DNA of 64,000 bases from a virus. Where the stretch lies: positions 27,888 to 91,887 of the IMG/VR virus record IMGVR_UViG_3300036781_000821; one strand, written 5' to 3'. Under the pieces are notes generated by a model. It was not told the DNA's origin. It did no database searches and saw nothing but the letters and a program-made list of their open reading frames with translations. A program made the translations under genes and the position numbers. Shown piece by piece: positions 747-17,335 of the stretch; position 1 is the first letter of the stretch, and each line of letters opens with the position of its first letter.

Positions 747-1145
747 TTAAACTTTCATGTGGCGGTTCATCAGTCCAATATCCTTGAACACGTACCGTTT
801 CCGGTTTCGTTTCAACCGTTCATAACCAATCACGCTCTGGCGTGGGAAATGCGATCGCATCGACCACCAGAGAGTCTTCAAAGCCTCACCCGTTCGCGCG
901 ACTGCGATGTCAATCCACATCACTTCGCCGGCATCATCGCGCACGTGCCAGTCCAGAGCCTGAGAACCGTGCGAAATCGGCCGCCCGATACCCACAGCGA
1001 GGCATCGGCCCGCGCCGTCGACGCAATAGATGAGGCTCTTTCGGTTCAGGGCGAAGCGAACGAAGCCGAAAAGCCGCTTCCAGCCCCACTCGCGGCATCG
1101 CGCCGAGTAGAGCCACAGGAAACGGGCGAAATCCACGGCGATCAC
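747..1145 (-). CDS. Phage protein, GNAT-fold/T7 gp13-like position
   Basis: 132 aa, coupled to the tail tube B gene; lies between tail tube and ejection genes as in podoviruses. Confidence 0.45.
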   Translation of the reverse strand: MIAVDFARFLWLYSARCREWGWKRLFGFVRFALNRKSLIYCVDGAGRCLAVGIGRPISHGSQALDWHVRDDAGEVMWIDIAVARTGEALKTLWWSMRSHFPRQSVIGYERLKRNRKRYVFKDIGLMNRHMKV

Positions 1146-2725
1146 GGCGTCAGCTCCTTTTCCACGGTGTCGAGATAGCCCGCGAGGTTCATCGAGCGCA
1201 TTCCGCAGTTGCCCTTTGTGTTGTGGATCTTGATAGCCATCTCCCGGAAGGGTCCGAATTGCATGAGATCACCCGCGTAGCGGTCGATACCCACCTTCTT
1301 GAGATCAAAAGGCAGGTCAACGGGCAGATCCACGGTCTCTACCTCGAAATCCTCCTTGACCTCGTTCTCGGTGTCCTCATCCAAAATCGCGCTTGCGGAA
1401 GTGTTTTCACCGCTGTCTTCCAAGTTCTCCAGCTCCAGCTCGCAATAATCGCCAGTCTTCGGGTTTTTGAGTTCCCGGAAATTCATCGAGCGGCTCAGAA
1501 CATCGAAATCGTAATCGGCGCCATCGTCCTGGAAGTCGGCCGCCACAAGGTTTTGCTCGCCCTTGTAATCGTTATTGACCAGCAGCTTTCCGGTATCCAT
1601 ACCGAGAACAAGTTTCAGGTCGCTGTTGAACTCAGTAATTTCCGAGCAACGCGCGCCGATGGACCACGGGCCTTCCCACGCCTTGTTTAGGAAGTTGTAG
1701 ACGAGCGTGTAGTTCGGCACCTGACTCGCATCGATCGGCACGCTCAGGCGATAGGTGTTGTTGCGGAAGACTGCGCTGGAGTTTTGCACGAACGCCCAAT
1801 TGATGCGCTCGATCCAATCTTGGATCTTCTTAGAAATCGGGTCGCTCACGCTGAAGCGGCCGTCGTTCGTCAACGTCGGGGTCAGGAGGCGAACGCCCTC
1901 CTTGTACGAGAGGAATGCAATTACGTCGTTGCACTGAACGGCAGTACGGTGCGCGCAACACCCAATCGAATCGCTGGTCTTGTTGATGGTCCAATCCCCC
2001 GCCGAGGTAGCCGTGGGATCTGCGTTGACCACGTAAATCCTGTTGAGCTTGAACACCGCGAGATTGAACTGAAACCACGGACAGGCGCCAGTAATGGGCT
2101 TTCCATCGCCGCCGACGCGGAAAGAAAATTGATTCTGCCAGTGCCCAGCCGTTGGATCGAGCAAGTCGCAGGCGTGGACCTGGTCCAGGACGGCCGAACT
2201 CGCCACAGGATTGTTGTAGTTGAGGACGAAGACGCGCTCTGTATGCGGAACGATGTATTTGTAGCCTGCTCCGGGGGTGTTTACGCCCGTAATTTGCGTA
2301 AACGCCGCCCCATCCCACGAATACACATTTTGAACGCCATCGACCAACAGCATTAAATCTGCAAGCTGCGCCATATGCACCTGGGCACCAGCGGTGGGAA
2401 CGTACGTTCCTATTGCGCCGGACACGACCACGCCGTCGAAGCTTTTCATCTGCGCATTACAGGCGATCAGAAGCTTCTCGACGGTAGGTGTCTTGAAATG
2501 CTTCATCCCCTGAATCGCTTGGGCAGCCGTCACCGTCGCGAGTAGACTGTGACCAATTCTCTTCTTGCACCGCTCATTGCTGAACAGCCGCCCGTTCAAG
2601 ATCAGTTGCGCTTCATTGGGCGCGAGACTGTTCGGACGGTCGTTGGAATTCATGCCACCTCCGAACGAGATTTGCTCGTCGAAGATCAGCGGATCATCCA
2701 GAAGTTCGTTATTGTGGACGGGCAT
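1142..2725 (-). CDS. Tail tubular protein B / nozzle (P22 gp10- or T7 gp12-like)
   Basis: 527 aa, beta-rich; N-terminal SFGGGMNS...L.PNE and internal IGCCAHRT motifs typical of this class. Confidence 0.75.
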   Translation of the reverse strand: MPVHNNELLDDPLIFDEQISFGGGMNSNDRPNSLAPNEAQLILNGRLFSNERCKKRIGHSLLATVTAAQAIQGMKHFKTPTVEKLLIACNAQMKSFDGVVVSGAIGTYVPTAGAQVHMAQLADLMLLVDGVQNVYSWDGAAFTQITGVNTPGAGYKYIVPHTERVFVLNYNNPVASSAVLDQVHACDLLDPTAGHWQNQFSFRVGGDGKPITGACPWFQFNLAVFKLNRIYVVNADPTATSAGDWTINKTSDSIGCCAHRTAVQCNDVIAFLSYKEGVRLLTPTLTNDGRFSVSDPISKKIQDWIERINWAFVQNSSAVFRNNTYRLSVPIDASQVPNYTLVYNFLNKAWEGPWSIGARCSEITEFNSDLKLVLGMDTGKLLVNNDYKGEQNLVAADFQDDGADYDFDVLSRSMNFRELKNPKTGDYCELELENLEDSGENTSASAILDEDTENEVKEDFEVETVDLPVDLPFDLKKVGIDRYAGDLMQFGPFREMAIKIHNTKGNCGMRSMNLAGYLDTVEKELTP

Positions 2726-5250
2726 TAATTCAGGACTTCAATAGTCAGGTTGGTGCAGGTGATGGTGTTGCTCGCGCTGGCCGTTCCCCATGTCACAAAC
2801 AGCCCAACAGTCTGGCTGTTTGCGGAGTTGAACGTCGCAGCCTGGTCGGGAGCATCCAGCGGATTATTCGTAGTGGCCGCACTGAAATAACTGCATGCGC
2901 CCACGGTCTTGCTCGTTGCGCTGCCGCCCGTCGTCCGCAGGGTCAGATCGAAACTGGCTTCCCAGTCTTTCGTTCCGGTGATCGACACCATCGTCTGGGC
3001 GCTGGTGTCGGCCATGACCGTCGTTCCCAGCTTTAATTGGAAGCGGAGTGTCGGGGTTCCCGTGTTTGCTATGATTCCGCGCGCATGAACTCTGATGGTT
3101 TTCCCGGCAACGAGGAAACTGGCTGGAATTGTCGCTGTACCTATGCCGGTTCCGACCAGTGTCGTTCCAGCACCGGAATTGGCTACCGTCACATCGGCGG
3201 TCTGCGTGAACAGCGTTCTCGTCGTGGAAACTGTTGCTCCCGTTTCACGAAATAGAAGCGTAGTCTGCGTCGAATCATTCCAGAGATCGCCGTTGGTCGT
3301 CGTCGCGGCTTTGCTGGCAAGATTGATCCTGCCGCCCAAGAATACATCCTTGGCAATGCCGAGGCCGCCTGCGAATGTCGCGCAACCGCTACCCGTGCTC
3401 GTCGATTGGGTTGCATCATTGAAGGCCCCGTTGCCTCCGAATACAAAAACACCGTTGATGTTCGCATTTTGACCAGATGCCGGAGAAATCGTTACTGAGC
3501 CCGATGTATTCACCGAGATCGGAGCCACGAAAACAAGAGCGTCAGTCCCGATCGTAATCGGACTCGTCGCGCCGCAGACAAATTCCTGCTTGCCGTTGAC
3601 TGTGCCAGCCAGCGCGTATATCTTCTGCGCGATGATCTTGTCCGATGTGTCGTACTGCGTATGCCGCATCAGGATGAACGGGTGCGAGCCATCGCCAGTT
3701 TGAATCAGCACATAAAGTCCATTCTGGAAGGTGCTGGCCTGCCCTGTGACAAGAATTGCCATACCCTGTGTGGTCGCGGTGCCGTTAACCGTACCAAGTG
3801 CGCCGTTGGAATTGCCCGTCAGGGTTGCTCCAACTCCGCTCGTTCCGTTGGCATAGGTACAGGCGGGTAATGCGCTGAAAGCTAACAAGTCCGCTTTTAG
3901 AGGACCGCGAAGGTAGTTTCCGCCGCCCAGCTTAGCAACCGGGTTTCCGGTGAAGTCCGTCGCATTATTGAATTGGGGAACGCAACCGGAAAACGTCGGC
4001 GCTCCCAATGCCGAGTCGATCATAACGTCGTTAAAAATCAGGTTTGAGGCGTTCGCGATGTTGAAGCTCGTTGGCGTTGTCGTGCCAACCACGTCCCGCT
4101 CGCGCAGCTTGAGGTTCGTAAAGATTATGTTGGTGATGTTGCCGGAGCTAGGAGAAGTAATGTGGACCCCGTGCTTAATTGTTCCTCCAGAGAGATCGGC
4201 ATCGTTAACCTCGAAATCGCAATCGTCCCACTCCATGTTTGAATAGGTGTTGCCTCCCTGACCGTTGAGCGAAACGCCCGCATTGCGCAGGTTTTTTCCA
4301 ACGCAGCCAATGGCCTTGTAGTTTGCAATCGGCCCTTCGTAATAGAACATGGTGCTGACGTTTTCCGCGTAACCGGCAATCTGCGTGACTGGCCCAACAC
4401 CCGTTCCGCCGAAGGCACAGGTTGAAAAGTTTGAGGATGCGCCAAGCTTGTTGTAGACGCTGCAATGACTCCAAATCGCTTGGCAGCTCTTGGAACCGCT
4501 GGTCGTGAACGTCAGAAATGTGCCGCCGTAATTGCCCTGGAACGAGTCTTCAGTTAGATCGGCGCCATAGTTCCCGGAAACGTCATGTTCGCCACCGCCA
4601 TCGGTATAGGTGGCAAAGGTAAAGGTGAAGCCCTCGCTTCCACCGGTGTTGCCGTACATGTTGATCGCCTTCACACCGAGCATGAAGCATTTGTTTCCAT
4701 ACAATTTGATTGCATTGATGCTGTTTGAAGTACTCGCGCTCAGCGCGGTCGCATTACCGTCGAGAGTTGCGCCATAACCGATAACGCCCGCGCCCGCGCC
4801 ATCTGCGTTGTAGACGTTTCCGAACATCGTCGGAGTTGCGTTGGTCAACGAATTGAGCTTGAAATAGCATCCGTTGATCACGACGATGCAGCTTTGCGGA
4901 ATCTGCCAGGTGTTATTCGATGTGCCGTCGCCGTTGCCTTCGATCAGGTATGGATTCGCCGAGGAGTTGGGAATGCAGACGACGACCGTGTTCGCAAAGT
5001 TATGATTGAACCAAACCGAAGACCATTTTGCGGGTGTGGAAACATCGTAGGGGTCCCACTGAGCGCCAGTACCCGCAACGCTATCGGTTCGCATCGCCAA
5101 ATAAACGGCGTTGGCGAGGCCGAGTTGCGCGACGGTGCCCAGGCTTGAGCCGCCACTCGTTCCCCCCATCAACCTGGGCGCGGGATCATACTGACCAAAA
5201 CTGGCGGTCAGCCCCAAGACCGCAACAAGAAGGATTCTTAGCCAGCGCAT
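2725..5250 (-). CDS. Tail fibre/tailspike-like protein with N-terminal signal peptide
   Basis: 841 aa, G/T/S/N-rich. Beta-helix-like N-terminal half, and a phage fibre module (GVGATLT...ILVTGQASTFQNGLYV). Starts MRWLRILLVAVLGLTASFG-Q; ATG lies 2 nt after the upstream stop. Confidence 0.75.
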   Translation of the reverse strand: MRWLRILLVAVLGLTASFGQYDPAPRLMGGTSGGSSLGTVAQLGLANAVYLAMRTDSVAGTGAQWDPYDVSTPAKWSSVWFNHNFANTVVVCIPNSSANPYLIEGNGDGTSNNTWQIPQSCIVVINGCYFKLNSLTNATPTMFGNVYNADGAGAGVIGYGATLDGNATALSASTSNSINAIKLYGNKCFMLGVKAINMYGNTGGSEGFTFTFATYTDGGGEHDVSGNYGADLTEDSFQGNYGGTFLTFTTSGSKSCQAIWSHCSVYNKLGASSNFSTCAFGGTGVGPVTQIAGYAENVSTMFYYEGPIANYKAIGCVGKNLRNAGVSLNGQGGNTYSNMEWDDCDFEVNDADLSGGTIKHGVHITSPSSGNITNIIFTNLKLRERDVVGTTTPTSFNIANASNLIFNDVMIDSALGAPTFSGCVPQFNNATDFTGNPVAKLGGGNYLRGPLKADLLAFSALPACTYANGTSGVGATLTGNSNGALGTVNGTATTQGMAILVTGQASTFQNGLYVLIQTGDGSHPFILMRHTQYDTSDKIIAQKIYALAGTVNGKQEFVCGATSPITIGTDALVFVAPISVNTSGSVTISPASGQNANINGVFVFGGNGAFNDATQSTSTGSGCATFAGGLGIAKDVFLGGRINLASKAATTTNGDLWNDSTQTTLLFRETGATVSTTRTLFTQTADVTVANSGAGTTLVGTGIGTATIPASFLVAGKTIRVHARGIIANTGTPTLRFQLKLGTTVMADTSAQTMVSITGTKDWEASFDLTLRTTGGSATSKTVGACSYFSAATTNNPLDAPDQAATFNSANSQTVGLFVTWGTASASNTITCTNLTIEVLN

Positions 5251-5252
5251 CG

Positions 5253-5651
5253 TTAGAACCCTCCAATTTCGGTGCGGATAACTATCGTCACCTGCGTGTT
5301 GGATTCATCCGCGCGCCTGATCCAAAGCTCGTTGCAGTCTCGCGTCTGAAATCCACGGACGGTAACGGCTGCGTTGGCGGGCAGAACCATTCCGAACGTG
5401 TCGGTGCTGCCTTGGCGCACCTCGATGGGAACGCTTGTGCCAGTCTTGACCGACGTTGGAATGATCACGCGATCACAAATGACATCCGGGAGCTGAACCC
5501 ACGTTGAACCCGAAGCCGAGGTCGTGACCTGAAAATTCTTTCCCTTTTCCGGCTGGTAGGACTTCACTACGGGGTCCGCATAAACCAGACCGCACAACAG
5601 CACCAACGCGAGCCACACGCTCGCCATCTTCGTCATCCACTTCGTTCTCAT
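5253..5651 (-). CDS. Small beta-rich phage protein with signal peptide
   Basis: 132 aa; MRTKWMTKMASVWLALVLLCGLVYA-D. Confidence 0.6.
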   Translation of the reverse strand: MRTKWMTKMASVWLALVLLCGLVYADPVVKSYQPEKGKNFQVTTSASGSTWVQLPDVICDRVIIPTSVKTGTSVPIEVRQGSTDTFGMVLPANAAVTVRGFQTRDCNELWIRRADESNTQVTIVIRTEIGGF

Positions 5652-5671
5652 TTCTCTCTTTCGGTTTGGGG

Positions 5672-6625
5672 TTAAGCTTTCAGGAATTGGTCGTATCCGC
5701 CGTCACAGGCGAAATCCACATCATCGGAGGCAATAAATGGAGCGTCGGGAACGAGCCGCACCTGGTTGGCGCGCTGGTATTCGTGGGCATCCTTCAAAAT
5801 CGCGAGCTGCGTGTTGGCCTCTTCGATTTTGGCTTGGGCCTTGGCGTACTGCCGGCTGCGCTCCAGCATGTCCGCCGTGCCGAAGGCGATGAGCGTGTTT
5901 TCCATGAACGACAACTCGGGAGTGTCGTTATCGTCGATCAATTGCCGCGCGCGGATCTTGTAGAGCACGAGCATGGTTTTGTCGGTCGACGGAATCGGGT
6001 GCAATTGAATCTGCTGGCACTTCACGTCGCGGTGTTCCGCCCACACCGTAATCAGCGTCGTGCCGCTGGTGTTGCCCTTGACGACCAGATCCCCGGTCAT
6101 GTCGTCTTTTCCCATCTGCCAGACATCATCGTAGGTGTTCGTCGACAGGACATCGGCACCGGAGCTGAGCGTCACCGTCTCACGGTAGATCACGCCCTCA
6201 TATTCGCCCTCGACGCGGACTTTCTTGCCGTTATCGGCCGCCTGCACCTGAACAAACTTGAGCTTTTCCCCGGCCGGCTTCACTTCGGTGGCAACCGGCC
6301 GTTCAAGCGAGTAATCCCAGGGCTCACCCGACTGCTCAAAGATGTTGGCGTAGGTCAGGTAGAGATATTCCTTTTGGACGGGTAGGATGAAGCGCGTGTC
6401 GTAGCGAATGGCGAGGACCAGCGCCATTGTCTGGGGAAAGATGATGTACTGGTTCGCGGTCGTAACCGCAACCGACTTCAGCCGCAGCAGCTCGCGCCAA
6501 ATTGTGTAGAGGCAGATCATGTCATGGCGCTGGCGCAGGAATTTCTTGCAAGCGGTTTGGCTCACGGCATCGTTCTTACCCACCTTCGTGCCGATCACGT
6601 CGACCATCTGGGAGAGTGACATCAT
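5672..6625 (-). CDS. Tail tubular protein A / head-tail adaptor
   Basis: 317 aa; IQLHPIP...VLY and helical C-terminus typical of podoviral adaptors; consistent synteny. Confidence 0.7.
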   Translation of the reverse strand: MMSLSQMVDVIGTKVGKNDAVSQTACKKFLRQRHDMICLYTIWRELLRLKSVAVTTANQYIIFPQTMALVLAIRYDTRFILPVQKEYLYLTYANIFEQSGEPWDYSLERPVATEVKPAGEKLKFVQVQAADNGKKVRVEGEYEGVIYRETVTLSSGADVLSTNTYDDVWQMGKDDMTGDLVVKGNTSGTTLITVWAEHRDVKCQQIQLHPIPSTDKTMLVLYKIRARQLIDDNDTPELSFMENTLIAFGTADMLERSRQYAKAQAKIEEANTQLAILKDAHEYQRANQVRLVPDAPFIASDDVDFACDGGYDQFLKA

Positions 6626-6867
6626 CGCAGGCCGTCCAGTTTGACATTGATCTTCGCCACGTCAGAGCAAATCATGTCCAACTTGGTTTCAGAGCGAATT
6701 TGGCTCTCGCGGTGATTGACCATCTTGTCCTCAGCCTCATCCAGCCGCCTATCCAAAGCATCCTGACGTTTTTCAACACGGTCAAGGCGGTAGGGAATAA
6801 CAGCCCAGGCCGCCAACGCCCCCAGGACGGAGAAAATCGCCATTACCGTGTTGATGTCGAATTGCAT
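6622..6867 (-). CDS. Small membrane/coiled-coil phage protein (holin- or XhlA-like)
   Basis: 81 aa; one N-terminal TM segment followed by a coiled coil. Confidence 0.5.
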   Translation of the reverse strand: MQFDINTVMAIFSVLGALAAWAVIPYRLDRVEKRQDALDRRLDEAEDKMVNHRESQIRSETKLDMICSDVAKINVKLDGLR

Positions 6868-6869
6868 TT

Positions 6870-7994
6870 TCAGATTTTGATGATCTTGTTCACGATGGCC
6901 GTGGGTTGGGTGATGTTGTGCGGATTTCCACCGCCCGTGTCGCCTGTCACGGGGGAAGCGCCGCTTGTCGTAACTGCTGTACTCGCTCCAGTCGCGGCGA
7001 AAACCGCCTGTGTGCCCATGCCGTGATGGTGAGCGGGCATTTCGGCGATGGAGAGCGTTTCGCTCTCGGAACCACCCACCGCAGCCAGGTTCGTTGCCGT
7101 GCCGCCAAAATACGTTGCCGTCAGGCGATTGGCGGCCGAGCCGCCCATATTGTCTTTACCAGCGCAGACGCGCCCGCGCAGGTCGGGGACGTTGAACGTG
7201 GTCGTGCCATCGCCCACACCCCACGTGGTGCCAATCTGGGCGAACAGCGCGGCGTAGGTCGTGCGGGAGACGGCGGATCCGTCACAGAGGAGGAAACCGG
7301 TCGGAACCGTGCCCCCGCCGAAGTCCAGCATCACGCCCGTCGGTACATATCCGGTTGCGGCCGGGATCTCCGCGAGGATCTGCACATAGGCCGTGGTCGT
7401 ACTCGTGGCGATGAAGATTTGCTTGTCGAATTGGCCCGCAGTTGTGGGCGCCGTCGTCGTGCTCGCGCCGGCAGTCGCGCCGCTCAGGTAATAGATTGAA
7501 CCCGAGGACAGACTGGTAAGCCCCGTAATCACGCCCTCGTTGATGAATGTGAAATTGTTGGCATCGGCCACTGCGCTGACCACGCCAACCGCGTGGACCG
7601 TGCCCGAGGCATCGGCTTTCGCCTTTGAGTAGGCGGAGCCCGTGTAATAAATGATGTCTCCCACGGCGAACCCGTGCGAGGCCTGGTTGATGCTCTGCTG
7701 GAGCCGCGTCAGGTTCGTGGAGGGAACCGCGTCGCTGTAGAGAACTTTCTTGAGCAATCCGCTCGCGTTCTCGTACACCAGCATCAAATCGCCGGGCTGG
7801 GGACTGCCGGAAATCGCGGTCTTCGTCGTGAGGAAACTCGGCTGGACCACCGCACCGTTGACGATCTGGTTCAGCTCGGTGTTGTTGATGTTCTTCTGGT
7901 CGGGAGCAAACGTGTAGCCCGTCAGGATGTCTCCCCCCAAACAGGAGAGACATCCCAACAGAACCAGCGTCAGTATGTAACGCAGGCGGTCCAT
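6870..7994 (-). CDS. Tail fibre with tail-collar domain and N-terminal signal peptide
   Basis: Clear phage tail collar motif PTGVMLDFGGGTVPTGFLLCDGSAVSRTTYAALFAQIGTTWGVGDGTTTFNVPDLRGR. Starts MDRLRYILTLVLLGCLSCLG. ATG overlaps the upstream stop (TAATG). Confidence 0.85.
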   Translation of the reverse strand: MDRLRYILTLVLLGCLSCLGGDILTGYTFAPDQKNINNTELNQIVNGAVVQPSFLTTKTAISGSPQPGDLMLVYENASGLLKKVLYSDAVPSTNLTRLQQSINQASHGFAVGDIIYYTGSAYSKAKADASGTVHAVGVVSAVADANNFTFINEGVITGLTSLSSGSIYYLSGATAGASTTTAPTTAGQFDKQIFIATSTTTAYVQILAEIPAATGYVPTGVMLDFGGGTVPTGFLLCDGSAVSRTTYAALFAQIGTTWGVGDGTTTFNVPDLRGRVCAGKDNMGGSAANRLTATYFGGTATNLAAVGGSESETLSIAEMPAHHHGMGTQAVFAATGASTAVTTSGASPVTGDTGGGNPHNITQPTAIVNKIIKI

Positions 7995-8683
7995 TACTCG
8001 ATGCAGGCTTCCATATGCATCGGATCAACCGACGCGCCTTTGAAGTCACCGCCCCATGTCCAACCCTCGGCCTTGAACAGGTCGATCAGGATTTGCGGAA
8101 CTCCTTTTTCGGGGTTCCACTTGCTTCCCTGCGGATTGTTATCCGGGTCCCAGTCAATCGCCGCACCATACGCGTGGAGCGAGAGACGGCTGCTATTCCG
8201 TTGTTTACGGAACTCGAAACCGCCGCCAAACAAGTGCAGGTCATCGGCCTCGATCTTCTCCTGGTCGCGGCCGTATTCCTGCCACAGCGCGGCCAGAATG
8301 CGGTCGATGCTCGGCTTTACGCGCTCATGGACGCGGAATCGCCGCAGGAGCTTATTTTCCATCTTCCCGGTGTTGGGATTGATCTCCTGCCAGCTCGTCA
8401 CCATCCGAAACGGAGGCTCGACGAACTTGAGGAAATTGCTTTCCCACCAGGGATCGAGGTTGCCGTCGATGCCAACCGGATTACGGAATACGTTAATCGC
8501 CTCATCGCGTGTAGGCCACGAATTTCGCACGAGGCTATCGCGCAGAGGACGCACAACCACAGGCACAATCGCTTTCGGCGCGTCCGCTTCAGGTGCCGGG
8601 TTCGGAGTGTTCTCCGCAGGTGGAGTTTCCGGCGCGTCCGCTTCCGGTGCGCCCTCATCCTTCTTGGTGTCATTCTTAGCCAT
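7994..8683 (-). CDS. Endolysin, peptidase M15 family
   Basis: R...SLHAYGAAID and DPMHME zinc-peptidase motifs; P/A/E-rich disordered N-terminus. Confidence 0.85.
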   Translation of the reverse strand: MAKNDTKKDEGAPEADAPETPPAENTPNPAPEADAPKAIVPVVVRPLRDSLVRNSWPTRDEAINVFRNPVGIDGNLDPWWESNFLKFVEPPFRMVTSWQEINPNTGKMENKLLRRFRVHERVKPSIDRILAALWQEYGRDQEKIEADDLHLFGGGFEFRKQRNSSRLSLHAYGAAIDWDPDNNPQGSKWNPEKGVPQILIDLFKAEGWTWGGDFKGASVDPMHMEACIE

Positions 8684-8690
8684 CGTTTTC

Positions 8691-8951
8691 CTATCCGTTT
8701 TGCCCTTTGAACTGCGAGATCAACTGCGATCTCATGTCATCGAGGCTGGGTTCACTTTGCTGTTGAGCTTGGTCCACGGGCTGCCCGTTAACGGCGCTCG
8801 GCGTGATCGTCACCATCCCGTTCTGGGATTGCGACACCTTGCCGTCGACCGTCACCGAAACGTCGTCACCGACTTGCGGCTCGCTACCGTCAGCGGAAAC
8901 CGCCGAGGCCGGGAGCACCAACTGCGCCTGCGTTTGCGTTTGCATATTCAT
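8691..8951 (-). CDS. Hypothetical phage protein
   Basis: 86 aa, directly downstream of the major capsid gene. Confidence 0.55.
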   Translation of the reverse strand: MNMQTQTQAQLVLPASAVSADGSEPQVGDDVSVTVDGKVSQSQNGMVTITPSAVNGQPVDQAQQQSEPSLDDMRSQLISQFKGQNG

Positions 8952-9004
8952 TTCAGGGTTCAGCGGGCGACCAGCCCATGCCAGCCGCCGCCGAATCCAT
9001 TTCC

Positions 9005-9976
9005 TTACGCGTTAACGTTGGTTTGAGTGCAGAGGGTCGATACCCAAGTCGCATCGAGCGTCTTGGTCGCGAACCAGAGCATGTGTACCGCGATGATCCA
9101 GGCATTTGCGGGGTCGGACTTGTCCGCTTTATCTAGCACGTTGACCTGCGGTGCTTTCGGAGTGCCCTGACCTTCGAGGTCCGCAACACCGAACGCGCCC
9201 TTGCCGAAGAACAGACCCGTGTGGATCGTGCCGGCATCATCGTAGGTGCCTTCGGCGGCCGACTGCTTGAACGGCTGAGTGGCCTCGACGATATTCACGC
9301 CGAACAACGTTCCGACGTATCCCTTGGTCATCCGCATCGGCTCGCTGTAGGTCACAAGCTGCTTCCAGTCGGGGTCCTTGCGGAAATCCCGGCCTTGGCG
9401 AGGCGAAATGACGCCGACGTAGTTTCCGTCGGAGAATTTCGGCGCTCGGGTGTCCTTCAACTGAGTCGCAATGCGGTCGATGTCCGCTACGATTGCGCGA
9501 CCAGCGCTGTAGGTGGACAACGCGGCAAAGTTCGCGCCGTTTTGGGCGTAGAACTTGTTGTTCGTATCCACGTTGCCGACCAGCTCGTCCCGGACCATCT
9601 TGTCCGCGAAAAGCGTTGCCGCCTCGATCATGCGATCGTTTTCTTTGTCCATCGCACGGAAGATCGAGAGCTGCTTTTGACGGCGGCTCACGCGAGCTGC
9701 GTCGTAGTACTCATCGAGCTTCACGTCCACCGGCGTGAGCGTGGTGTTCGTGTATTCAAGATTGGTCTGACCTTCCGCCAGCTTCTTGAAGCTGCCAGCA
9801 GAGGCGGCAGCCCTCTTGTGGAACCGGATCGTGTCCGTGCCCTCTTCCAAAGGCAGATCGCTTTTATCGCCGTACTTTGGAAGCACGACGTCCTGGATAA
9901 CCGTCTCCAGGAATTTCTTGTTTAGGTAGTACGGCAGGTTCGACGTTGCGTGTGTCGCTACTTTGACATCACCCAT
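9005..9976 (-). CDS. Major capsid protein (HK97 fold, N4-gp56-like)
   Basis: 323 aa; KLAEG, YVGVISP, GYVGTLFGVNIVE, FFGKGAFG and DKSDPAN motifs; follows the scaffold gene. Confidence 0.85.
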   Translation of the reverse strand: MGDVKVATHATSNLPYYLNKKFLETVIQDVVLPKYGDKSDLPLEEGTDTIRFHKRAAASAGSFKKLAEGQTNLEYTNTTLTPVDVKLDEYYDAARVSRRQKQLSIFRAMDKENDRMIEAATLFADKMVRDELVGNVDTNNKFYAQNGANFAALSTYSAGRAIVADIDRIATQLKDTRAPKFSDGNYVGVISPRQGRDFRKDPDWKQLVTYSEPMRMTKGYVGTLFGVNIVEATQPFKQSAAEGTYDDAGTIHTGLFFGKGAFGVADLEGQGTPKAPQVNVLDKADKSDPANAWIIAVHMLWFATKTLDATWVSTLCTQTNVNA

Positions 9977-9994
9977 ATATTTGAATTCCTATAG

Positions 9995-11038
9995 TTAGGA
10001 ACGGTGTGCCATGTCCGCCTCTCGTGCCTGACGCAATATATCCGTTTTCATGTCCGAGACTGACTTGGACTTGAACTCGGGTGCTGCGCCGGGCGAGCCG
10101 GGAGCGCTTCCATCAATCCGTCTGGATTGCTGCAACCGTTCATTTTCTTTCGTTAGTTCGTCAACCTTTTTCTGCAAGCCAGCCGCTGAATCCGCTTTCA
10201 AGCGCAGATTTTCGTGCTCGACGATCCAGTAGTGCATGACCGGGGGAACCGGCATATTGAGGGGCGTGAGCGCTTCCTTCACCTTGTCGAAGGCTGCGTT
10301 CGCGTTTTTCGATAGGGGGCTATCGGCGTTGGCGTAGTCGGGGAAATCCTTCTTTGCCGCATCGGTATTACGGGTAATCTCCGATGAGAAGAAGGTGTGG
10401 TATTCCGTCTGCGCTGACTGCCTCATCTCCTTGGCATCATTCCGGGCTAGTTGTGCCAGGCGCAGCTGTTCTTTCCCCGCGTCGGTATCCTTGCCCAACT
10501 TTTCAGCCTCTTTATCGAACGCGCCCGCGATCTCATCCAGCTCCTGAGCCGTGTACTTGCCCTTGGCTTTCGCCGCAGGTTTTCCATCGTCCTTGGGAGC
10601 GGCGTCTTTCTGCTTCAGCGCTTCTTCACGATGCTGAATTTCCGCTTCCCGCTGGTTGAGTTTCTCGTGCCGCTTGGCCGCACGCGCACCCGCGCGCCGC
10701 GCCTTTTCCATGCGTTTCTGGTAGTCGGACATCTGCGCCCCAGCCAGGTCGTCGTCATTTTCGGGAACGTCGTCGGGTGACTTCGCATCCTTTTTGTCGT
10801 CGATCTTGGGTGTGGCCGCAGCGGCCGGCTTGCCGTCAGGTTGACCCTCTGAAGGGGCCTGCTTGTTGTCGGCAGGCTTCTGCGAATCGGGATTTTTGTC
10901 ATCGACGGGCGCGGCAGCACCGGGATCAGCGGGCTGGGCGTCTGTCATAATGCCCGGCCCTCCGCTCTCATGCTCCGCAGCCGATTTAAGTAACTCGGAT
11001 TTCATATCCGCCAGTGATGTCTTGCCTTCTTCGCTCAT
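9995..11038 (-). CDS. Capsid scaffolding protein
   Basis: 347 aa, charged, low-complexity and coiled-coil; immediately upstream of the capsid gene. Confidence 0.7.
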   Translation of the reverse strand: MSEEGKTSLADMKSELLKSAAEHESGGPGIMTDAQPADPGAAAPVDDKNPDSQKPADNKQAPSEGQPDGKPAAAATPKIDDKKDAKSPDDVPENDDDLAGAQMSDYQKRMEKARRAGARAAKRHEKLNQREAEIQHREEALKQKDAAPKDDGKPAAKAKGKYTAQELDEIAGAFDKEAEKLGKDTDAGKEQLRLAQLARNDAKEMRQSAQTEYHTFFSSEITRNTDAAKKDFPDYANADSPLSKNANAAFDKVKEALTPLNMPVPPVMHYWIVEHENLRLKADSAAGLQKKVDELTKENERLQQSRRIDGSAPGSPGAAPEFKSKSVSDMKTDILRQAREADMAHRS

Positions 11039-11062
11039 GGTTTTTCTAGTTTCCTTCTAGAG

Positions 11063-11425
11063 TCAGGGAATGGTTCCCGAGATCCCGTCGTCTCCCTGTT
11101 CAACGTCGGGTTCGGATTCGTGCAGTTGCCGCCGCACGTGCGCGGAAAGTCGTAGTTGTTCGGTAAACATGCCCCGCAAGCCCATCGCATAGCCGCACCA
11201 GAGCTTGTCCCCGGTGCGGACGCTGGCCGCGTCCTGGTCCTGGCAAAGGCGCAGAACCTTGCGCTGGAATTTTTCGCCCGTCTCGGAGATGAGGAACGCA
11301 TTCCAGTTTTCCTCGTCGGCCTCGACCCACTCGGATGGACGATCCGGCCGGATGGGAGCCAGCAGAATGTCCGAAAGACTCATCAGTGCCCAAATCTTGA
11401 GCCGCCATTTCAGCTTCTGGATCAT
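11063..11425 (-). CDS. Hypothetical phage protein (portal-scaffold interval)
   Basis: 120 aa, coupled to the portal stop. Confidence 0.55.
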   Translation of the reverse strand: MIQKLKWRLKIWALMSLSDILLAPIRPDRPSEWVEADEENWNAFLISETGEKFQRKVLRLCQDQDAASVRTGDKLWCGYAMGLRGMFTEQLRLSAHVRRQLHESEPDVEQGDDGISGTIP

Positions 11426-13317
11426 GCCGCCACCGCCATTTCCGATTGCGGCGCGGGCGCGTGACCGTTGCGGATCATGGCGCCGTGTTCCATACCCGCG
11501 AGATGCGCAGCCTCTGCCTTGAGCTGGTTAACGGCGCTCTTCTCCATCTCGGCGAACTGAAACGCCAACTTTTTCGCGAGCTGGGGATTCTGCTTTTGGA
11601 GCAGTTGAATGTGTTGTTCGGTGTTTTGCTTGAGCAGGCCTTCCGCACGCGGGCTGATTGCCTTGCGCTCGGTAAATAGCTTGTGCATCACCTGGAAATT
11701 GGTTGCCACGCGCGTCGCGTGATCCTGGCCCTGTTCGGCATCGACCTGCATTTCGAGAACCGGGTTGGTCATCAGGTCAATGCAATTGGCCTGATCCAAC
11801 TGCTCGCGCTTGGCCGCATCCTGACCCGCCACAAACAGCCGTTTCTTCGTCTCAGCGCCACGCACCTCGTAGTACATGGAATAGAGTTCGTCCTGGTTGC
11901 AGCGCGGATCTCCGCGCAGGTTCTGGAACATATCGTTAACGATCTGGACTTCACCGGCGCGGCCCAGCCCATCGGGGTTTCCACTCGGCTCGATGACGTA
12001 GGCGTCGGAAATGGCTTCCTGCGGCAAAATCTGCGTTTGCCCGTCGAAGATGTAGACCAGCGATTCCCCGTCGAATTGGCACGTGAGGCTCCACGCCTGA
12101 CTGAAGACTTCCGTGAGCGTCTCGCGGATGGAAAAGATGCGTTCCTCGCTGACCAGTGAGCTGTTGTTTTGCGCGGCTCCCACCGCCCGGGCCGTTTGCG
12201 CGTCACCGGACTGGAGCGTTTGCTGCAAAGCGAAATCGGGACTGCCGACCAGCTCCTGTTGGAGACTGCGGGAATTGAGCATTTCCTGGAGCAGCTCTTT
12301 CGGCGGTGGATCGAACGAAACGGCCGACAGCCCGCCCTTGGTCACATCGCCCGGCTTCAGCAATTCGTTGGTGATGTTGACCTGCGTTCCCTGCGTCGTG
12401 AGAATCGGTTTGGCCTTGAACGCCATGTAGTCGGTCCACATGTTGCGGTACTTGGTGGCGTTGACCTCCTCGCCCATGCCCTTCTCGACCACGCCGCGAG
12501 ATCCATTCCAGCTCTTGTCGATGATTTCCTGCTCGAACTTGGCGTAGGGATATTTGTTGTGCTTGTAGGGCAGGGGTTGATCCGCGCGCACGGGAATATC
12601 CTTACGCAGCGGCGACCACCAGACCACGCGCACGTTGCCGGCGTCATCCCGGTAGTAAACCTCCCAGATAATGATCTCTTCGAGATTGTCGGAGTGGGTG
12701 AGACCCTCGCGCTTGTACTTGAGCTTGGAAAACTCGCTCTCTTTGCTGTTTTTGCTGCCATCACCCTTGATGGAGTCAATGAAATCTTCGTGCTGGTTGT
12801 AGAGCTTGTTCTTCTTGTACGCTTCCAGCGACACGCGCTTGATCTCCATGCACCAGTCCGCTTTCTGCAGGTCGGTGGTCCAGGGCGGGACGACGAAGGA
12901 AGAGGAGCGAATATCGTCAAACGCAACCTTGTTCTCGTCAACGTCGCGGTAAATCTTGATCAGGCTTATGCCGCTTTCGAGCATGTAGTCGATGGATCGC
13001 TTCGTCGACTTGTTGAAATTGGTCTTGCGCTTGAGGCGGTAACTGAAGCAGTTCGCGGCGTTCTTCAAATAGGGAGCGAGATTGTCCTGCTCCGTGCCGA
13101 ATGTGCAGATCACATCGTTCTGGAAAATAGTGCGGTTGATCTGACCCTTGATCTTGTCGATCGCGGGGTCTGCGAGCTTAACGGGCGTGTCCGACTGCCA
13201 TTTCTCTTTGCCCAAACGCCTGACACCATCGCGGCGGATTTTATAGAAGGTGCGCTGCCGGTCGTCGTACTTCTCCCGGTTTTTCAGCACCTCTATGATT
13301 TGGTCGTAACGGTCCAT
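11422..13317 (-). CDS. Portal protein (P22/T7-like)
   Basis: 631 aa; WNGSRG and QTARAV motifs; size and synteny fit. Confidence 0.8.
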   Translation of the reverse strand: MDRYDQIIEVLKNREKYDDRQRTFYKIRRDGVRRLGKEKWQSDTPVKLADPAIDKIKGQINRTIFQNDVICTFGTEQDNLAPYLKNAANCFSYRLKRKTNFNKSTKRSIDYMLESGISLIKIYRDVDENKVAFDDIRSSSFVVPPWTTDLQKADWCMEIKRVSLEAYKKNKLYNQHEDFIDSIKGDGSKNSKESEFSKLKYKREGLTHSDNLEEIIIWEVYYRDDAGNVRVVWWSPLRKDIPVRADQPLPYKHNKYPYAKFEQEIIDKSWNGSRGVVEKGMGEEVNATKYRNMWTDYMAFKAKPILTTQGTQVNITNELLKPGDVTKGGLSAVSFDPPPKELLQEMLNSRSLQQELVGSPDFALQQTLQSGDAQTARAVGAAQNNSSLVSEERIFSIRETLTEVFSQAWSLTCQFDGESLVYIFDGQTQILPQEAISDAYVIEPSGNPDGLGRAGEVQIVNDMFQNLRGDPRCNQDELYSMYYEVRGAETKKRLFVAGQDAAKREQLDQANCIDLMTNPVLEMQVDAEQGQDHATRVATNFQVMHKLFTERKAISPRAEGLLKQNTEQHIQLLQKQNPQLAKKLAFQFAEMEKSAVNQLKAEAAHLAGMEHGAMIRNGHAPAPQSEMAVAA

Positions 13318-13700
13318 TACTTCGCGTCTACCTTGGTTTTGTTCTCGTCGATCTGCTGATGGAGCTGGAGTTCAACTTTGTCGCGGGCCACCATGTACGC
13401 CGTGGACGCCAGGCACATCGGCGCGGTGAGAACCACCGTTGTCTTGGTTGGGCCGTCCTTGGTCTCGTTAATCGCCACAGCACGAAAAGCCTGAGCATCC
13501 GCGACTGACGGGAAGACAATCCACGATCCAGCGGGGAGTTGCATCCGGTAGGCGTTTCCATCAACTGTTTGGCTTACCGTCGGGAGTCCAGCCGTGTGAA
13601 ATCCGCAGCTCACTGAGAATATGCTCAGCGCGGACATAATCACCGCGAGCCTCAGCAGCGGCCAACTGCGCCCGGAGGTTTGAGTAGCGGGTTTGCTCAT
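13317..13700 (-). CDS. Lipoprotein, o-spanin (Rz1)-like
   Basis: Hydrophobic leader ending ...ALSIFSVSC; overlaps the TM gene 13561-13812 in another frame. Start uncertain. Confidence 0.5.
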   Translation of the reverse strand: MSKPATQTSGRSWPLLRLAVIMSALSIFSVSCGFHTAGLPTVSQTVDGNAYRMQLPAGSWIVFPSVADAQAFRAVAINETKDGPTKTTVVLTAPMCLASTAYMVARDKVELQLHQQIDENKTKVDAK

Positions 13701-13812
13701 CCTGCAATTGCTCCTGCGTGGTTGGCGCTGCTTTGCGGCGATACCAGAACCACCATGCCGAGAACAAAGTCCCCGCAATTCCGAGTGCGCCAGAAATAAG
13801 TGATAGTGACAT
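13561..13812 (-). CDS. i-spanin (Rz)-like membrane protein
   Basis: 83 aa; N-terminal TM plus coiled coil, following the holin. Confidence 0.5.
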   Translation of the reverse strand: MSLSLISGALGIAGTLFSAWWFWYRRKAAPTTQEQLQDEQTRYSNLRAQLAAAEARGDYVRAEHILSELRISHGWTPDGKPNS

Positions 13813-14028
13813 TCACGGACCCTTTGCTCCCGCTTTTTCGTCGCTTACCTTGTTGTCACGGGCGTGGAATGCGACCCAACCCAAGCTGAAGGCGGTACTG
13901 ATAACACCCCAATCGGTTACTGTCGGCAATGTCCCATGATCGAGGAAGTTCTTGGCCGCATTGCAGACAAGGCCAATGCCGCTGCCAAAGGACAGCACAC
14001 CGCCGAGGGTTGTCCGCCACGACCTCAT
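13813..14028 (-). CDS. Putative holin
   Basis: 71 aa; MRSWRTTLGG start, two TM segments, charged tail ARDNKVSDEK. Confidence 0.6.
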   Translation of the reverse strand: MRSWRTTLGGVLSFGSGIGLVCNAAKNFLDHGTLPTVTDWGVISTAFSLGWVAFHARDNKVSDEKAGAKGP

Positions 14029-14504
14029 TGCGGCCCCTGGGTTACGGTTGAATACGCGGAGGCCGCTTGCTCGCAGCCTTGGGCCAGTGCGCTCAGCACT
14101 TCGATGGCATACTTCGGATTGCCCACAATCTGCGGGTAGTAGGCGCTGTAAATCTCCGCGATTGTCCCGGAGAATTGCGCGTAGATCCCGACGTTGCCAG
14201 TCCAGTGGAATGAGGCAACGGCTTCCGCCACTTGCTCGGGTGTGGGGACCTTGCCGTCCGTCAGCGAATAAACGCCACTGGCTGCGGAATAGATTTGATT
14301 CGCGAGCAGCGTCCGCTCCGCAGCGTCATTAACGCCGAACTGGAGGAACACGCCCGTGGCAATATGGGCGCCAGTGGTGATCGTGCCCAAGTATGGCGCA
14401 ACCGGGTCCGCCGATGCGGGAACCGCGGGAGCCGTTGGAACCGTCGATTTACAGCCGATCAGCGCGACGCAGATCAGCACCAGCAGTATGTTGAACCATT
14501 TCAT
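14025..14504 (-). CDS. Phage lipoprotein
   Basis: MKWFNILLVLICVALIG-C lipobox; start moved to ATG at 14504. Confidence 0.7.
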   Translation of the reverse strand: MKWFNILLVLICVALIGCKSTVPTAPAVPASADPVAPYLGTITTGAHIATGVFLQFGVNDAAERTLLANQIYSAASGVYSLTDGKVPTPEQVAEAVASFHWTGNVGIYAQFSGTIAEIYSAYYPQIVGNPKYAIEVLSALAQGCEQAASAYSTVTQGPQ

Positions 14505-14620
14505 TCCTGTCCTTCTGTTAACTTTCAATTCGAGTGTGGCCGGCCAAGGATGTTTGGATAACGTCGCGCTTGGCGAAGTCGTCCAAACCATCCTTATGGC
14601 CGTTGTGCACAAATCTTTTC

Positions 14621-15343
14621 CTATCGCAGCGTTGTCTGGAAATATTTCACCGACTGGTAATCGACCTGCACAGTCCGCGCGGTCGTTCCCGCAGTCTTCA
14701 AGATGCTGACACCCGCGCCCACCGCCGCAGTCGGGATGTTGGTCTTGTGCGTGGCGACCAGCACGTCGTTGACGTAGAAGTTGACTTCCTTGGCCTTCTC
14801 ATCCACGCGAATCGCCAGCTTCTGGAATGTGCCCGCGACTGGATCATAGGCGCTGCCCAATGTCGTGGTCGTGGCCGTGCCCGCATTGTCCGTCCGGCAG
14901 ATCAAGTGCGTACTCGCGTTCGTGTACTTGAAGCAGATGTCGTTGTTGTTATCGCCGCTGGTCCCCGCCAGGAATCCCTCGCGGATACCGGCGGAATCAG
15001 TTCCATCCGGCAGTGTCGGAATATTAACGGCCGTCTCGTAGAGCAGCACGCCGGATCCCGGAGTCGTGAAGCTCACCGAGTTGGAATCGCCCGTGCCACG
15101 GTAGGAATAGCCGGAGGTGGTCGTACCCGTCGAGAGCTGGACAATGCCGGGGCGCAGCGCGGTGCCTGCAACCTGCGACTGTGCAGCGCCCGTTCCGCTG
15201 TTGACCACGTTAAACCCGTGAATCGCAGCGGGCGTGGTGCATTCGTCGAATAGTTGGACAGGCGGATAGAGCTGTGCGCTCGCGCTGACGATTGATACGA
15301 AGGCGAGCAGGACTACTGCCAGCCAGTGATTTACTTTCTTCAT
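14621..15343 (-). CDS. Beta-rich, virion-like protein with signal peptide
   Basis: MKKVNHWLAVVLLAFVSIVSASA-Q; T/G-rich, RPGIVQLSTGTT and VNFYVNDVLVATH (lectin-like fold). Start moved to ATG at 15343. Confidence 0.65.
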   Translation of the reverse strand: MKKVNHWLAVVLLAFVSIVSASAQLYPPVQLFDECTTPAAIHGFNVVNSGTGAAQSQVAGTALRPGIVQLSTGTTTSGYSYRGTGDSNSVSFTTPGSGVLLYETAVNIPTLPDGTDSAGIREGFLAGTSGDNNNDICFKYTNASTHLICRTDNAGTATTTTLGSAYDPVAGTFQKLAIRVDEKAKEVNFYVNDVLVATHKTNIPTAAVGAGVSILKTAGTTARTVQVDYQSVKYFQTTLR

Positions 15344-15374
15344 CTCTGTTGTTTCCTTGGTTGGTTGTTGTTTG

Positions 15375-16796
15375 TCAGTAGGCGACGCCGCCCACTTCGC
15401 AAACGTCGCGACTGGATTCCGTCTCCTCGTAGATTTCACTTAACGGCTTGAAAATTTGCTCCGATCCCTTCACCCAACTCGTGACCGGGGATTCGCCGGC
15501 CCACCAGACGCCGGCGACGGCATCGGCGCGGTCGGGCGAGGACACGCCGCGATCATGCAGGTCTCGCTTGCTTTCCAGGCGCAACTTGCCAGTAGCTTCG
15601 TTCAGCACACCGTAGCGGTCGGTTAGCTGCGCGCGCAGGATGCCATCGGGATCTGGAGGAAGCCCGACTTCCATGCGCTCGATGGCGCGGCCGAGGCCGT
15701 ACCACTGTTGAGCGGCGACGTTGTCGTAGGCTTCGTCATTCACCTTGGCATTGGCGTTGACCCGGTTGAGCGCCCAGCCAGCCTTGTCGAAAGCGTCGCA
15801 GATGGGAATGTCGATACCATCCGCACCAGCCCAGACTTCTGAGGGCTTGAGCTTGTATTCCTTGAAAAGCTGAATGAAGCGCGCGACTGCCGCCATGCTG
15901 TCCTTCTCGCGCCAGCAGATCAGGGCCTTGATGTAATTTCCTTCGCGGTAGCAGAAAACATTTTCATCGCCGCCGAGCGCGAAATCGAGGTAGGCCGCGC
16001 GGTCATGGCGGTTGATGCGGATCACGCCGCCGTTTGTCCCTCCGCTGTACGCGCGAGCCAGGTACTGAATCTTGACGGGCTTGGCGGCCGCCATCAGGTC
16101 GTCGTCACCCATGAACTCCGCGTAAAGCGCCGAGCGCGTGAGCGGATGATTCTCACCGTACTTTGCGAAGAACTTTTTCTTGTCCTCCTCGCCCATGTGC
16201 GGACAGTCGTCGATGGTGATGGTGATATTGGTAAAGCCCAGTGTCGGATTGTTGAACGAGTCGTAGAAATCTCCCATCATCATGCCCGTGGAGCTGAGCA
16301 AGATCAGGCGCTGGTATTTGCAGCGATCCATCGCCGTGAAGATTGGCTTGGGAATGCTCTTGGCTTCGTCACCCCAGATCCACAGCGACTCTTGAAGATT
16401 GCCGTGGTTTCCCTCGAAGCGACCGGCTTCCTTCGTCGATATGAAACGCGCCCAGGAACCGTTAGGCGCCGTGATCTCATCGTTGGTCATTTTCCAGCGA
16501 GGCAAGCGTTCCTTGTGATTGAAAATGTTCGGCTGGACCTGCGTTTCGAGCTGGGTCCAGGACGCGGATGTGATGATGTGACGCGAGCGCGGGAATTTCG
16601 ACATCGCCCACAACAGACCGGGCGCGAGAATGTTGCTGGTCTTGCCACCGCCATTGTTAGCCTTCACGGAGAGGCGGTCAGTTTCTGTCAACGCATCGAG
16701 AGCGGCGATCTGCTTCGGCGTGGGTGTAAGCCCCAGCTCCTTCTCCGCGAAAACAACGGGGTGCAGCTCGATGTGCTCTTTGAGGAAGCTGTTCAT
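15375..16796 (-). CDS. terL: Terminase large subunit
   Basis: ANNGGGKT Walker A, WGDEAK Walker B, LDFALGGDE nuclease motif, SPDRADA. Confidence 0.92.
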   Translation of the reverse strand: MNSFLKEHIELHPVVFAEKELGLTPTPKQIAALDALTETDRLSVKANNGGGKTSNILAPGLLWAMSKFPRSRHIITSASWTQLETQVQPNIFNHKERLPRWKMTNDEITAPNGSWARFISTKEAGRFEGNHGNLQESLWIWGDEAKSIPKPIFTAMDRCKYQRLILLSSTGMMMGDFYDSFNNPTLGFTNITITIDDCPHMGEEDKKKFFAKYGENHPLTRSALYAEFMGDDDLMAAAKPVKIQYLARAYSGGTNGGVIRINRHDRAAYLDFALGGDENVFCYREGNYIKALICWREKDSMAAVARFIQLFKEYKLKPSEVWAGADGIDIPICDAFDKAGWALNRVNANAKVNDEAYDNVAAQQWYGLGRAIERMEVGLPPDPDGILRAQLTDRYGVLNEATGKLRLESKRDLHDRGVSSPDRADAVAGVWWAGESPVTSWVKGSEQIFKPLSEIYEETESSRDVCEVGGVAY

Positions 16797-17265: not shown

Positions 17266-17335
17266 GCTGAGAGCAATAACGCACGTCCTAGCGAAGCATC
17301 AACCGGAATCAAGTCGACGGTTTTGGACGAACTGC

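Follow-up and report, generated by a model that had tools for sequence, protein, structure and literature searches.

Predicted Sec-type leaders on the tail fibres and other late proteins of a short-tailed soil prophage, and a possible periplasmic step in fibre attachment

The stretch of DNA analysed here, called the window, comprises 64,000 nucleotides (nt) of the IMG/VR virus record IMGVR_UViG_3300036781_000821 (positions 27,888 to 91,887), and its positions 1-17300 carry, on the minus strand, the late genes (packaging, head, tail and lysis) of a short-tailed prophage. Four late proteins, two of them large fibres, begin with N-terminal leaders which are predicted to be genuine export signals of the Sec type, cleavable by signal peptidase I. 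What is new here, judged from sequence comparison, is that a full-length leaderless orthologue of one of these proteins, a Collar-domain tail fibre of 374 amino acids (aa), begins at the predicted cut, and that this leader-bearing fibre is the only core fibre of the phage. We tentatively favour a reading in which the fibres are exported and cleaved, and then attached to the particle after the holin opens the inner membrane. The four proteins and their leaders are as follows, with a slash marking the predicted cut.

2725-5250, minus strand: 841-aa fibre or tailspike-like protein, with a conserved proximal 400 aa and a swapped distal half
5194-5250, minus strand: leader of the 841-aa fibre, residues 1-19, MRWLRILLVAVLGLTASFG/Q
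5253-5651, minus strand: 132-aa protein, translationally coupled to the 841-aa fibre gene
5577-5651, minus strand: leader of the 132-aa protein, residues 1-25, ending ...LLCGLVYA/D
6870-7994, minus strand: precursor of the 374-aa Collar-domain tail fibre (Pfam Collar, PHROG tail proteins, 8kec, L171), with a middle domain at residues about 100-210 and the Collar domain at 221-276
7935-7994, minus strand: leader of the Collar fibre, residues 1-20, MDRLRYILTLVLLGCLSCLG/G
7710-7934, minus strand: anchor module of the Collar fibre, residues 21-95 (anchor model E 2.7e-31)
14621-15343, minus strand: 240-aa protein, a leader followed by a ConA-like / SO2946-like_C domain (residues 64-228), with no fibre shaft
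15275-15343, minus strand: leader of the 240-aa protein, residues 1-23, ending ...VSIVSASA/Q

Each of the four leaders consists of a positive n-region (net charge +1 to +3), an uncharged hydrophobic core (h-region) of 13-17 residues with a mean Kyte-Doolittle value of 2.9-3.3, and small residues at positions -3 and -1 of the predicted cut sites, namely SFG/Q (841-aa), VYA/D (132-aa), CLG/G (Collar fibre) and ASA/Q (240-aa). The n/h/c anatomy and the -3/-1 rule of the Sec/signal peptidase I class hold for all four, both in the window and in L001, a syntenic sister contig from IMG/VR whose portal is 74% identical to that of the window. The original prediction had named these four open reading frames of the late operon, and all four were found on the minus strand at the positions listed. 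Since h-regions of 13-17 residues are too short, the leaders are unlikely to be stable membrane anchors.

The two fibre starts had been taken as fixed by coupling to upstream stop codons, and this was confirmed, i.e., the 841-aa fibre starts 2 nt past the upstream stop, and the ATG of the Collar fibre overlaps the stop codon of the M15 peptidase gene. Ribosome-binding sites of the GGAGG-like or AGGA-like kind lie upstream of the four starts, and the leader genes are translationally coupled within the late operon. True starts downstream of the hydrophobic segments, an objection raised earlier, are improbable here; the internal TTG at codon 19, which would give a leaderless isoform, is TTC in L001, and there is no conserved alternative. 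Neither promoter-like sites on the coding strand nor convincing terminators were found around the leader genes (the sigma-70 consensus may not fit the host), so there is no sign of autonomous expression as morons.

All four leaders are retained in L001, including that of the 132-aa protein, which has diverged in sequence and kept its hydrophobicity. Between the window and L001, synonymous divergence (dS) is saturated (0.9-2.5), and the ratio of non-synonymous to synonymous divergence (dN/dS) of the four leader genes is 0.13-0.22. Across codons 1-30 of the 841-aa gene, synonymous differences amount to 16.5 of 23.5 sites, versus 9.5 of 66.5 non-synonymous sites. This synonymous pattern of the leader codons, along with the dN/dS values, shows that the leaders are translated and under selection.

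The leaders were called with an in-house heuristic calibrated on 146 cytoplasmic capsid-family proteins, one of which it flags (a false-positive rate of about 0.7%). Within the late region it flags only the four leader proteins, two lipoproteins (13317-13700 and 14025-14507) and two membrane proteins. Portal and capsid carry no leader, as originally described, and the scaffold, the 317-aa protein and the hub are likewise leaderless. The proteins first called adaptor and tail tube do lack leaders, but those names did not hold, and the labels 317-aa tail-core protein and P22 gp10-like hub fit the two better. No paralogy between the leader-bearing and leaderless proteins of this phage was detected.

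Other classes of signal were also considered. A lipobox had been put forward as an alternative for the Collar fibre, but its LLG-C becomes LLV-C in L001, and no lipobox of the form [LVI][ASTVI][GAS]C is shared by the window and L001 versions of any leader; because the LLG-C is not conserved, a signal peptidase I site is preferred for this fibre. A Tat signal was rejected, as none of the four leaders contains the RR of the motif S/T-R-R-x-F-L-K. Cargo of type IX secretion was rejected as well, with no NCBIfam match to the sorting domains TIGR04183 or TIGR04131 at E<=0.1. A lead based on cysteine pairing was dropped, in that the counts are odd, no paired change was seen, and the leaderless hub is Cys-rich too.

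The 374-aa protein matches Pfam Collar (PF07484) with E 4.6e-22 and 78.2 bits against a gathering cut-off of 24, the tail fibres of many phages and, distantly, the long tail fibre of a solved virion, 8kec. Its AlphaFold2 (AF2) model is confident only for residues about 100-210, and a Foldseek search of the model against the PDB gave no match at E<=0.001. The closest orthologue, at L171 10244-11329, is 54% identical over its full length (E 2e-108; its residues 3-361 against window residues 22-374) and shares the Collar-domain body. The original prediction had asked whether homologues begin at the mature domain, and this one does, i.e., it is leaderless and starts at the predicted cut. Its N-terminus reads MSDINRGFTF, and a cut after Gly20 would give the window fibre the N-terminus GDILTGYTF..., in register with those of the leaderless fibres.

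A hidden Markov model (HMM) was built from the first ~75 residues of this fibre module, referred to here as the anchor, and it matches 27 distinct fibres of 177-802 aa, including both fibres of the annotated podovirus ctKR88 (MW202524; MGTLGRGYTF...). Except in a few cases with an evidently wrong start call, the anchor of the leaderless fibres begins at residue 2-5. These fibres resemble the window fibre in the ~75-residue N-terminal anchor and in their position ahead of the 317-aa protein and the hub. However, they start with Met followed directly by the anchor, whereas a Sec-type leader of 20-30 residues precedes it, among the 27 HMM matches, only in the fibres of the window (module from residue 21), L001 (from residue 30) and L184_19304. 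Window and L001 anchors share 81% identity, and tblastn of the anchor alone against cultured phages returned no match. That the anchor is fixed at the extreme N-terminus in the relatives suggests that a free N-terminus matters, and only cleavage would restore it here.

The 374-aa fibre is the sole anchor-bearing protein of the window phage, and no other fibre-like protein lies outside the leader-bearing set. L171 and L170 have their genes in the order fibre, 317-aa protein, hub and then homologues of the downstream genes of the window, from which the window differs by an 81-aa gene inserted between the fibre and the 317-aa protein and by two leader-bearing genes between the 317-aa protein and the hub. 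Both its sequence and its gene position make the 374-aa protein orthologous to this podovirus family's core virion fibre. As the sole anchor-bearing protein, at the position of the family's core fibre, it is hardly a mere decoy.

The distribution of the leaders was surveyed in 79 viral contigs of the same capsid family, collected with a capsid alignment (A7), among which homologues of the portal were found in 66, of the hub in 24, of the 317-aa protein in 27 and of terL in 49. No leader was found on any portal, hub or 317-aa homologue in these 66, 24 and 27 contigs. Among the 32 relatives with at least 4 kb of sequence downstream of the capsid gene, an anchor fibre is present in 18, leaderless in 17 and leader-bearing in one; the window and L001 fibres are leader-bearing in addition. 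At least two leader-bearing late proteins of at least 150 aa occur in 4 of the 32. The leader trait is patchy across the podovirus family. Two to five leader-bearing late proteins are seen at L184 11015-20569, L198 15282-19253, L227 11777-14144 and L170 1332-4335, and many of the cuts predicted in them expose Gln. The leader of L184_19304 is a second, independent one ahead of the fibre anchor module.

Leaders also occur on fibre-like proteins of other phages, and several homologues of the middle domain of the Collar fibre carry one. In L013 (7424-12753), an unrelated, Mu-like myovirus contig, the gene of a 466-aa fibre without a leader precedes four fibre-like genes in a row whose products all have leaders. 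Two of these products are paralogous to parts of that fibre (E 1e-16 and 7e-10), with 44% identity across the C-terminal 101 residues of the fibre, and behind the row come genes for a small membrane protein and for lysis. L014 has two leader-bearing proteins of about 610-630 aa between its fibre genes and lysis genes. In seven other fibre-containing contigs, leaders were seen only on lysis-type proteins. Leader-bearing fibre-like proteins thus recur, as predicted from sequence, and some of these phages have a leaderless fibre as well, whereas the window phage has only leader-bearing fibres.

By tblastn, residues 450-590 of the 841-aa protein match tail fibres of cyanophages and others, and the protein distantly resembles a solved virion protein, 9efk orf22, present in 18 chains (E 5.5e-13). 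Its look-alikes in the Atlas are pectate-lyase-like phage proteins and, weakly, an AmsF cluster, which we take only as a lead. Identity to L001 is 76-96% over residues 1-350, 60% over residues 351-400 and 14-58% beyond, and a distal fall of this kind is usual where the proximal part stays constant and the receptor-binding part is exchanged. Its N-terminal 440 aa have no homologue besides that in L001. Relative to the family's core gene order, the 841-aa and 132-aa genes are insertions.

The 132-aa protein has no family match above noise in Pfam, PHROG or NCBIfam, and we can only speculate that it is a candidate periplasmic fibre chaperone or accessory protein. The 240-aa protein matches Pfam PF22237 (7.9e-11) and belongs to a family that is about 95% viral in the Atlas. 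A leader is absent from 50 of its 54 homologues, many of which either have a fibre-like N-terminus or are free-standing domains of similar size. Read from these homologues, the 240-aa protein is a leader placed before a domain that elsewhere forms a fibre tip.

Tailed-phage assembly is taught as a wholly cytoplasmic process, and P22 tailspikes can attach to finished heads. The pathway that we favour, with some reserve, would divide assembly between two compartments. In the late phase, both fibres, the 132-aa protein and the 240-aa lectin-like protein would cross the inner membrane via Sec and be trimmed by signal peptidase I, and a cut after Gly20 would give the 374-aa fibre the same free N-terminus as its Met-processed leaderless orthologues. 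The fibres would then fold in the periplasm, perhaps with the 132-aa protein as a helper there, and the head, portal, 317-aa tail-core protein and hub would be assembled in the cytoplasm. Particles without fibres would come into contact with the mature fibres only when the inner membrane is opened by the holin, shortly before endolysin and spanin-like pair complete lysis, and, more speculatively, the fibres would dock via the N-terminal anchor, much as P22 tailspikes do on finished heads. We infer export and cleavage from the leaders; attachment after the membrane breach is speculative. We prefer this pathway because the fibre, which relatives could hardly dispense with, is present here solely as a precursor with a leader, and because its anchor is conserved, no internal start is conserved and the genes are coupled in the late operon. 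The order of lysis, with the inner membrane opened first, is consistent with a leaderless endolysin and the presence of holin-like and spanin-like proteins. The original reading is supported in part, in that the leaders are real and homologues start at the mature domain.

Several known systems resemble parts of this arrangement. Bdellovibrio bacteriovorus makes phage-fibre-like trimers with a signal peptide, called mosaic adhesive trimer (MAT) fibres (Caulton et al. 2024, PMC10769870), so Sec export of such trimers is feasible, and they can function beyond the cytoplasm. MAT and window fibres alike have a conserved domain right after the leader, in MAT the beta-rich N-domain of ~130 aa, and variable distal tips (PMC10769870). 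However, MAT fibres are chromosomal adhesins on the predator's own surface, whereas the window genes lie in a phage late operon, a genomic context that sets them apart; no S74 domain was found in the window proteins. Pantoea stewartii WceF and Erwinia AmsF are exported tailspike-like exopolysaccharide hydrolases (PMC7949094), and like the window fibres they combine a tailspike-fold trimer with an N-terminal export signal. WceF, in contrast, is exported with a Tat signal and its gene belongs to a polysaccharide biosynthesis cluster, whereas the window leaders have no twin arginine and belong to phage late genes.

Phage proteins, late or early, that use the host Sec machinery include secreted and signal-arrest-release (SAR) endolysins (fOg44 Lys44, P1 Lyz) and spanins (PMC6116005). 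The window phage has spanin-like and lipoprotein genes too, but endolysins and spanins, as well as Llp and Cor, are neither virion components nor fibre-like, whereas the window leaders are of type I and two of them sit on large fibres. In Porphyromonas gingivalis, prophage genes with Sec signals, some exposing an N-terminal Gln, have been reported (Matrishin et al. 2023, PMC10367356). The genes named there are capsid genes (taken as prohead-protease substrates), spanins and genes of unknown function, which were read as envelope modifiers (PMC10367356). The 841-aa and 240-aa proteins would likewise start with Gln after cleavage; tail fibres, however, are not among the genes named. Targets of diversity-generating retroelements (DGR) in phages have no signal peptides, unlike bacterial surface DGR targets (PMC6199706). 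The two-compartment pathway suggested here is not described for tailed phages in the literature searched.

Among other explanations, an unlikely one overall, if the most serious, is that the four are accessory exported proteins acting in the periplasm or on the cell surface, receptor binding on the particle being done by something else. Such proteins could mask or destroy receptors and so spare progeny from debris, exclude superinfection, cut exopolysaccharide for release, or serve as adhesins. Llp and Cor, small lipoproteins that act as periplasmic or outer-membrane exclusion proteins, are precedents. The Tat-exported WceF (PMC7949094) and the MAT adhesins are others. The idea is favoured by the make-up of the 240-aa protein, a leader plus a fibre-tip-like lectin domain without shaft or anchor, by the inserted position of the 132-aa and 841-aa genes, and by the leader-bearing proteins elsewhere, which in L013 are paralogous to the tip of a leaderless fibre (E 1e-16) and in L014 stand beside leaderless fibres and adjoin lysis genes. 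It has to contend, however, with a 374-aa fibre that is the only orthologue of the family's core fibre and whose anchor is under selection, with the lack of any leaderless fibre-like protein in the window phage and of any sign of separate expression in the lysogen, and with the fact that Sec alone leaves proteins in the periplasm, away from surface receptors. An accessory role suits the 240-aa and 132-aa proteins better than the fibres, and those two may well be exported accessories. The alternative in the original prediction, that the leader proteins act as receptor blockers or adhesins, fares in the same manner: it hardly suits the 374-aa fibre, a core-fibre orthologue, and is possible for the 240-aa and 132-aa proteins.

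The leaders could also be partly effective, such that a cytoplasmic fraction builds virions and an exported fraction is accessory, which we consider less likely again. This dual localisation needs no new assembly route and still explains the selection on the leaders; moreover, large, fast-folding trimers are poor Sec substrates. Yet the anchor lies at residue 2-5 in leaderless relatives, where a hydrophobic extension of 20 residues would presumably be harmful, no internal start codon is conserved, and hydrophobic cores as strong as these (mean Kyte-Doolittle 2.9-3.3) are those of efficient signals. It is improbable that the prophage is domesticated or defective, perhaps as a hybrid of phage and conjugative element, with fibre genes co-opted as exported surface proteins. 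This would account for a MOBF relaxase and a TraG-like protein inside the attL-attR span and for the rarity of the lineage, of which two members and none in 400 Bryobacterales genomes were found; against it, every head, tail-core, ejection-like and lysis gene is intact and, in two copies diverged to dS 1-2, strongly held by purifying selection, as expected of a working phage. Least of all would we expect that the hydrophobic segments are not export signals, which is highly improbable. Fibres do contain hydrophobic trimer cores, and the segments might be buried fibre parts or results of mis-called starts, but ribosome-binding sites and coupling fix the starts, the leader codons show a translated synonymous pattern, all four have the positive n-region and follow the -3/-1 rule, the segment is wholly absent from leaderless orthologues, and the heuristic rarely errs (about 0.7% false positives).

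The two-compartment pathway, to which we return, has several points weighing against it. The cysteines show no need for oxidative folding, and fibres released into a bursting cell could be diluted. The layout of L013 looks more like an accessory role of its leader-bearing proteins. No report of a tailed phage exporting a virion part or tail fibre was found in the literature. In addition, the relaxase and TraG-like protein lie inside the same attL-attR span, which leaves a domesticated or defective particle some probability.

If the pathway is correct, it alters the view of how the late steps of morphogenesis and the timing of lysis connect, explains 'secreted' virome proteins that annotation pipelines read as host-interaction genes, and is relevant to making engineered fibres. 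If the proteins are accessory instead, they would be periplasmic factors for receptor or glycan binding, of a type new among phage-encoded proteins. Either way, a signal peptide is no ground for excluding a protein as a virion component.

The late genes run from terS through the probable terL, the 240-aa protein, the lysis-like cassette, the portal, the scaffold and the major capsid protein to an 86-aa protein, the M15 peptidase, the 374-aa Collar fibre, the 81-aa XhlA-like protein and the 317-aa protein, and then to the 132-aa protein, the 841-aa fibre-like protein, the 527-aa hub and ejection-like proteins, which are of low complexity and extend beyond the start of the window. The features besides the leader genes are as follows.

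1142-2725, minus strand: 527-aa tail hub, a P22 gp10-like 'stabilization protein' (tblastn, phrog_3287), no leader
5672-6625, minus strand: 317-aa tail-core protein, no leader, with homologues in 27 related contigs, always adjoining the hub
6622-6867, minus strand: 81-aa XhlA-like membrane protein (weak Pfam XhlA match, phrog_1193), between the Collar fibre and the 317-aa protein
7994-8683, minus strand: 229-aa M15 peptidase, endolysin-like (Pfam Peptidase_M15_4 1.6e-14, PHROG endolysin), no leader
9005-9976, minus strand: major capsid protein (phrog_1357 8e-27; 715 representatives at E<=1e-3), no leader
11422-13317, minus strand: portal (weak SU10_portal match; annotated portal of Podoviridae sp. 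ctKR88), no leader
13317-14507, minus strand: lysis-like cassette, between terL and the portal
13317-13700, minus strand: lipoprotein of the cassette, its gene overlapping the 83-aa gene out of frame as a spanin-like pair
13561-13812, minus strand: 83-aa N-terminally anchored protein of the cassette
13813-14028, minus strand: two-helix holin-like 71-aa protein of the cassette
14025-14507, minus strand: lipoprotein of the cassette, with lipobox LIG-C
15375-16796, minus strand: probable large terminase (P-loop), following terS, with homologues beside portals in 49 contigs, no leader
16879-17265, minus strand: terS (phrog_4044)

The tblastn matches of the hub are annotated as 'phage stabilization protein' and 'head closure'. 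A complex predicted from the hub and three copies of the fibre anchor scored 0.00, which gives no answer either way, and the AF2 model of the 317-aa protein has a pLDDT of 32. The probable terL has no Pfam or PDB match. No family match was obtained for the proteins of the lysis-like cassette, of which L001 keeps only the 83-aa protein and the lipoprotein that overlaps it, the latter with a canonical LTS-C lipobox; a 135-aa membrane protein lies upstream of the Collar fibre of L001 instead. In ctKR88 (L016 3147-11978), a distant relative, glycosyltransferase and methyltransferase genes form a block that separates the capsid gene from the tail hub.

At one end of the element lies a tRNA-Gly(CCC) gene (1295-1369 of L002, a flanking stretch of the same record) and at the other a direct repeat of the 3' half of that gene, at window ~36088-36135; these are the attL/attR of the whole element, spaced about 43.7 kb apart. 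A 42-mer from the tRNA-Gly matches mostly genomes of Bryobacterales/Solibacteraceae (Acidobacteriota), and a soil metagenome is the sole sequencing run found with this DNA, which together point to an acidobacterial host; judged from the attachment site, it is probably a diderm soil acidobacterium (Bryobacterales). Among the runs listed, no RNA run carries this DNA. The portal has no match in the 400 Bryobacterales genomes scanned, and scans of genome and metagenome contig collections with portal and capsid gave none either; the window phage and L001 are the two members found of a rare lineage. The capsid profile is positive in 6 of the 400 genomes, where it matches only small elements organised differently. 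Capsid-family relatives are present in two or three copies per genome in two Bryobacterales genomes, G130 and G148 (L146, L148 and L149); these small, high-GC elements have another organisation and no obvious fibre genes, and are perhaps defective or satellites.

The prophage also encodes, on the tail-gene side of its integrase, a 517-aa protein with a TraG-D_C (coupling-protein) domain (L002 3930-5483, i.e., genome 22929-24482); its gene precedes the tail genes and is separated from the ejection-like genes by a gap of ~450 bp. Small membrane proteins directly follow leader-bearing fibre-like genes in the window (6622-6867), in L013 (12511-12753) and in L014 (7791-8066). Those of L013 and L014 have no PHROG family match, the weak XhlA match being confined to the window copy, and all three, from unrelated phages, are built alike, with a hydrophobic segment at the N-terminus and a charged, helical tail behind it.

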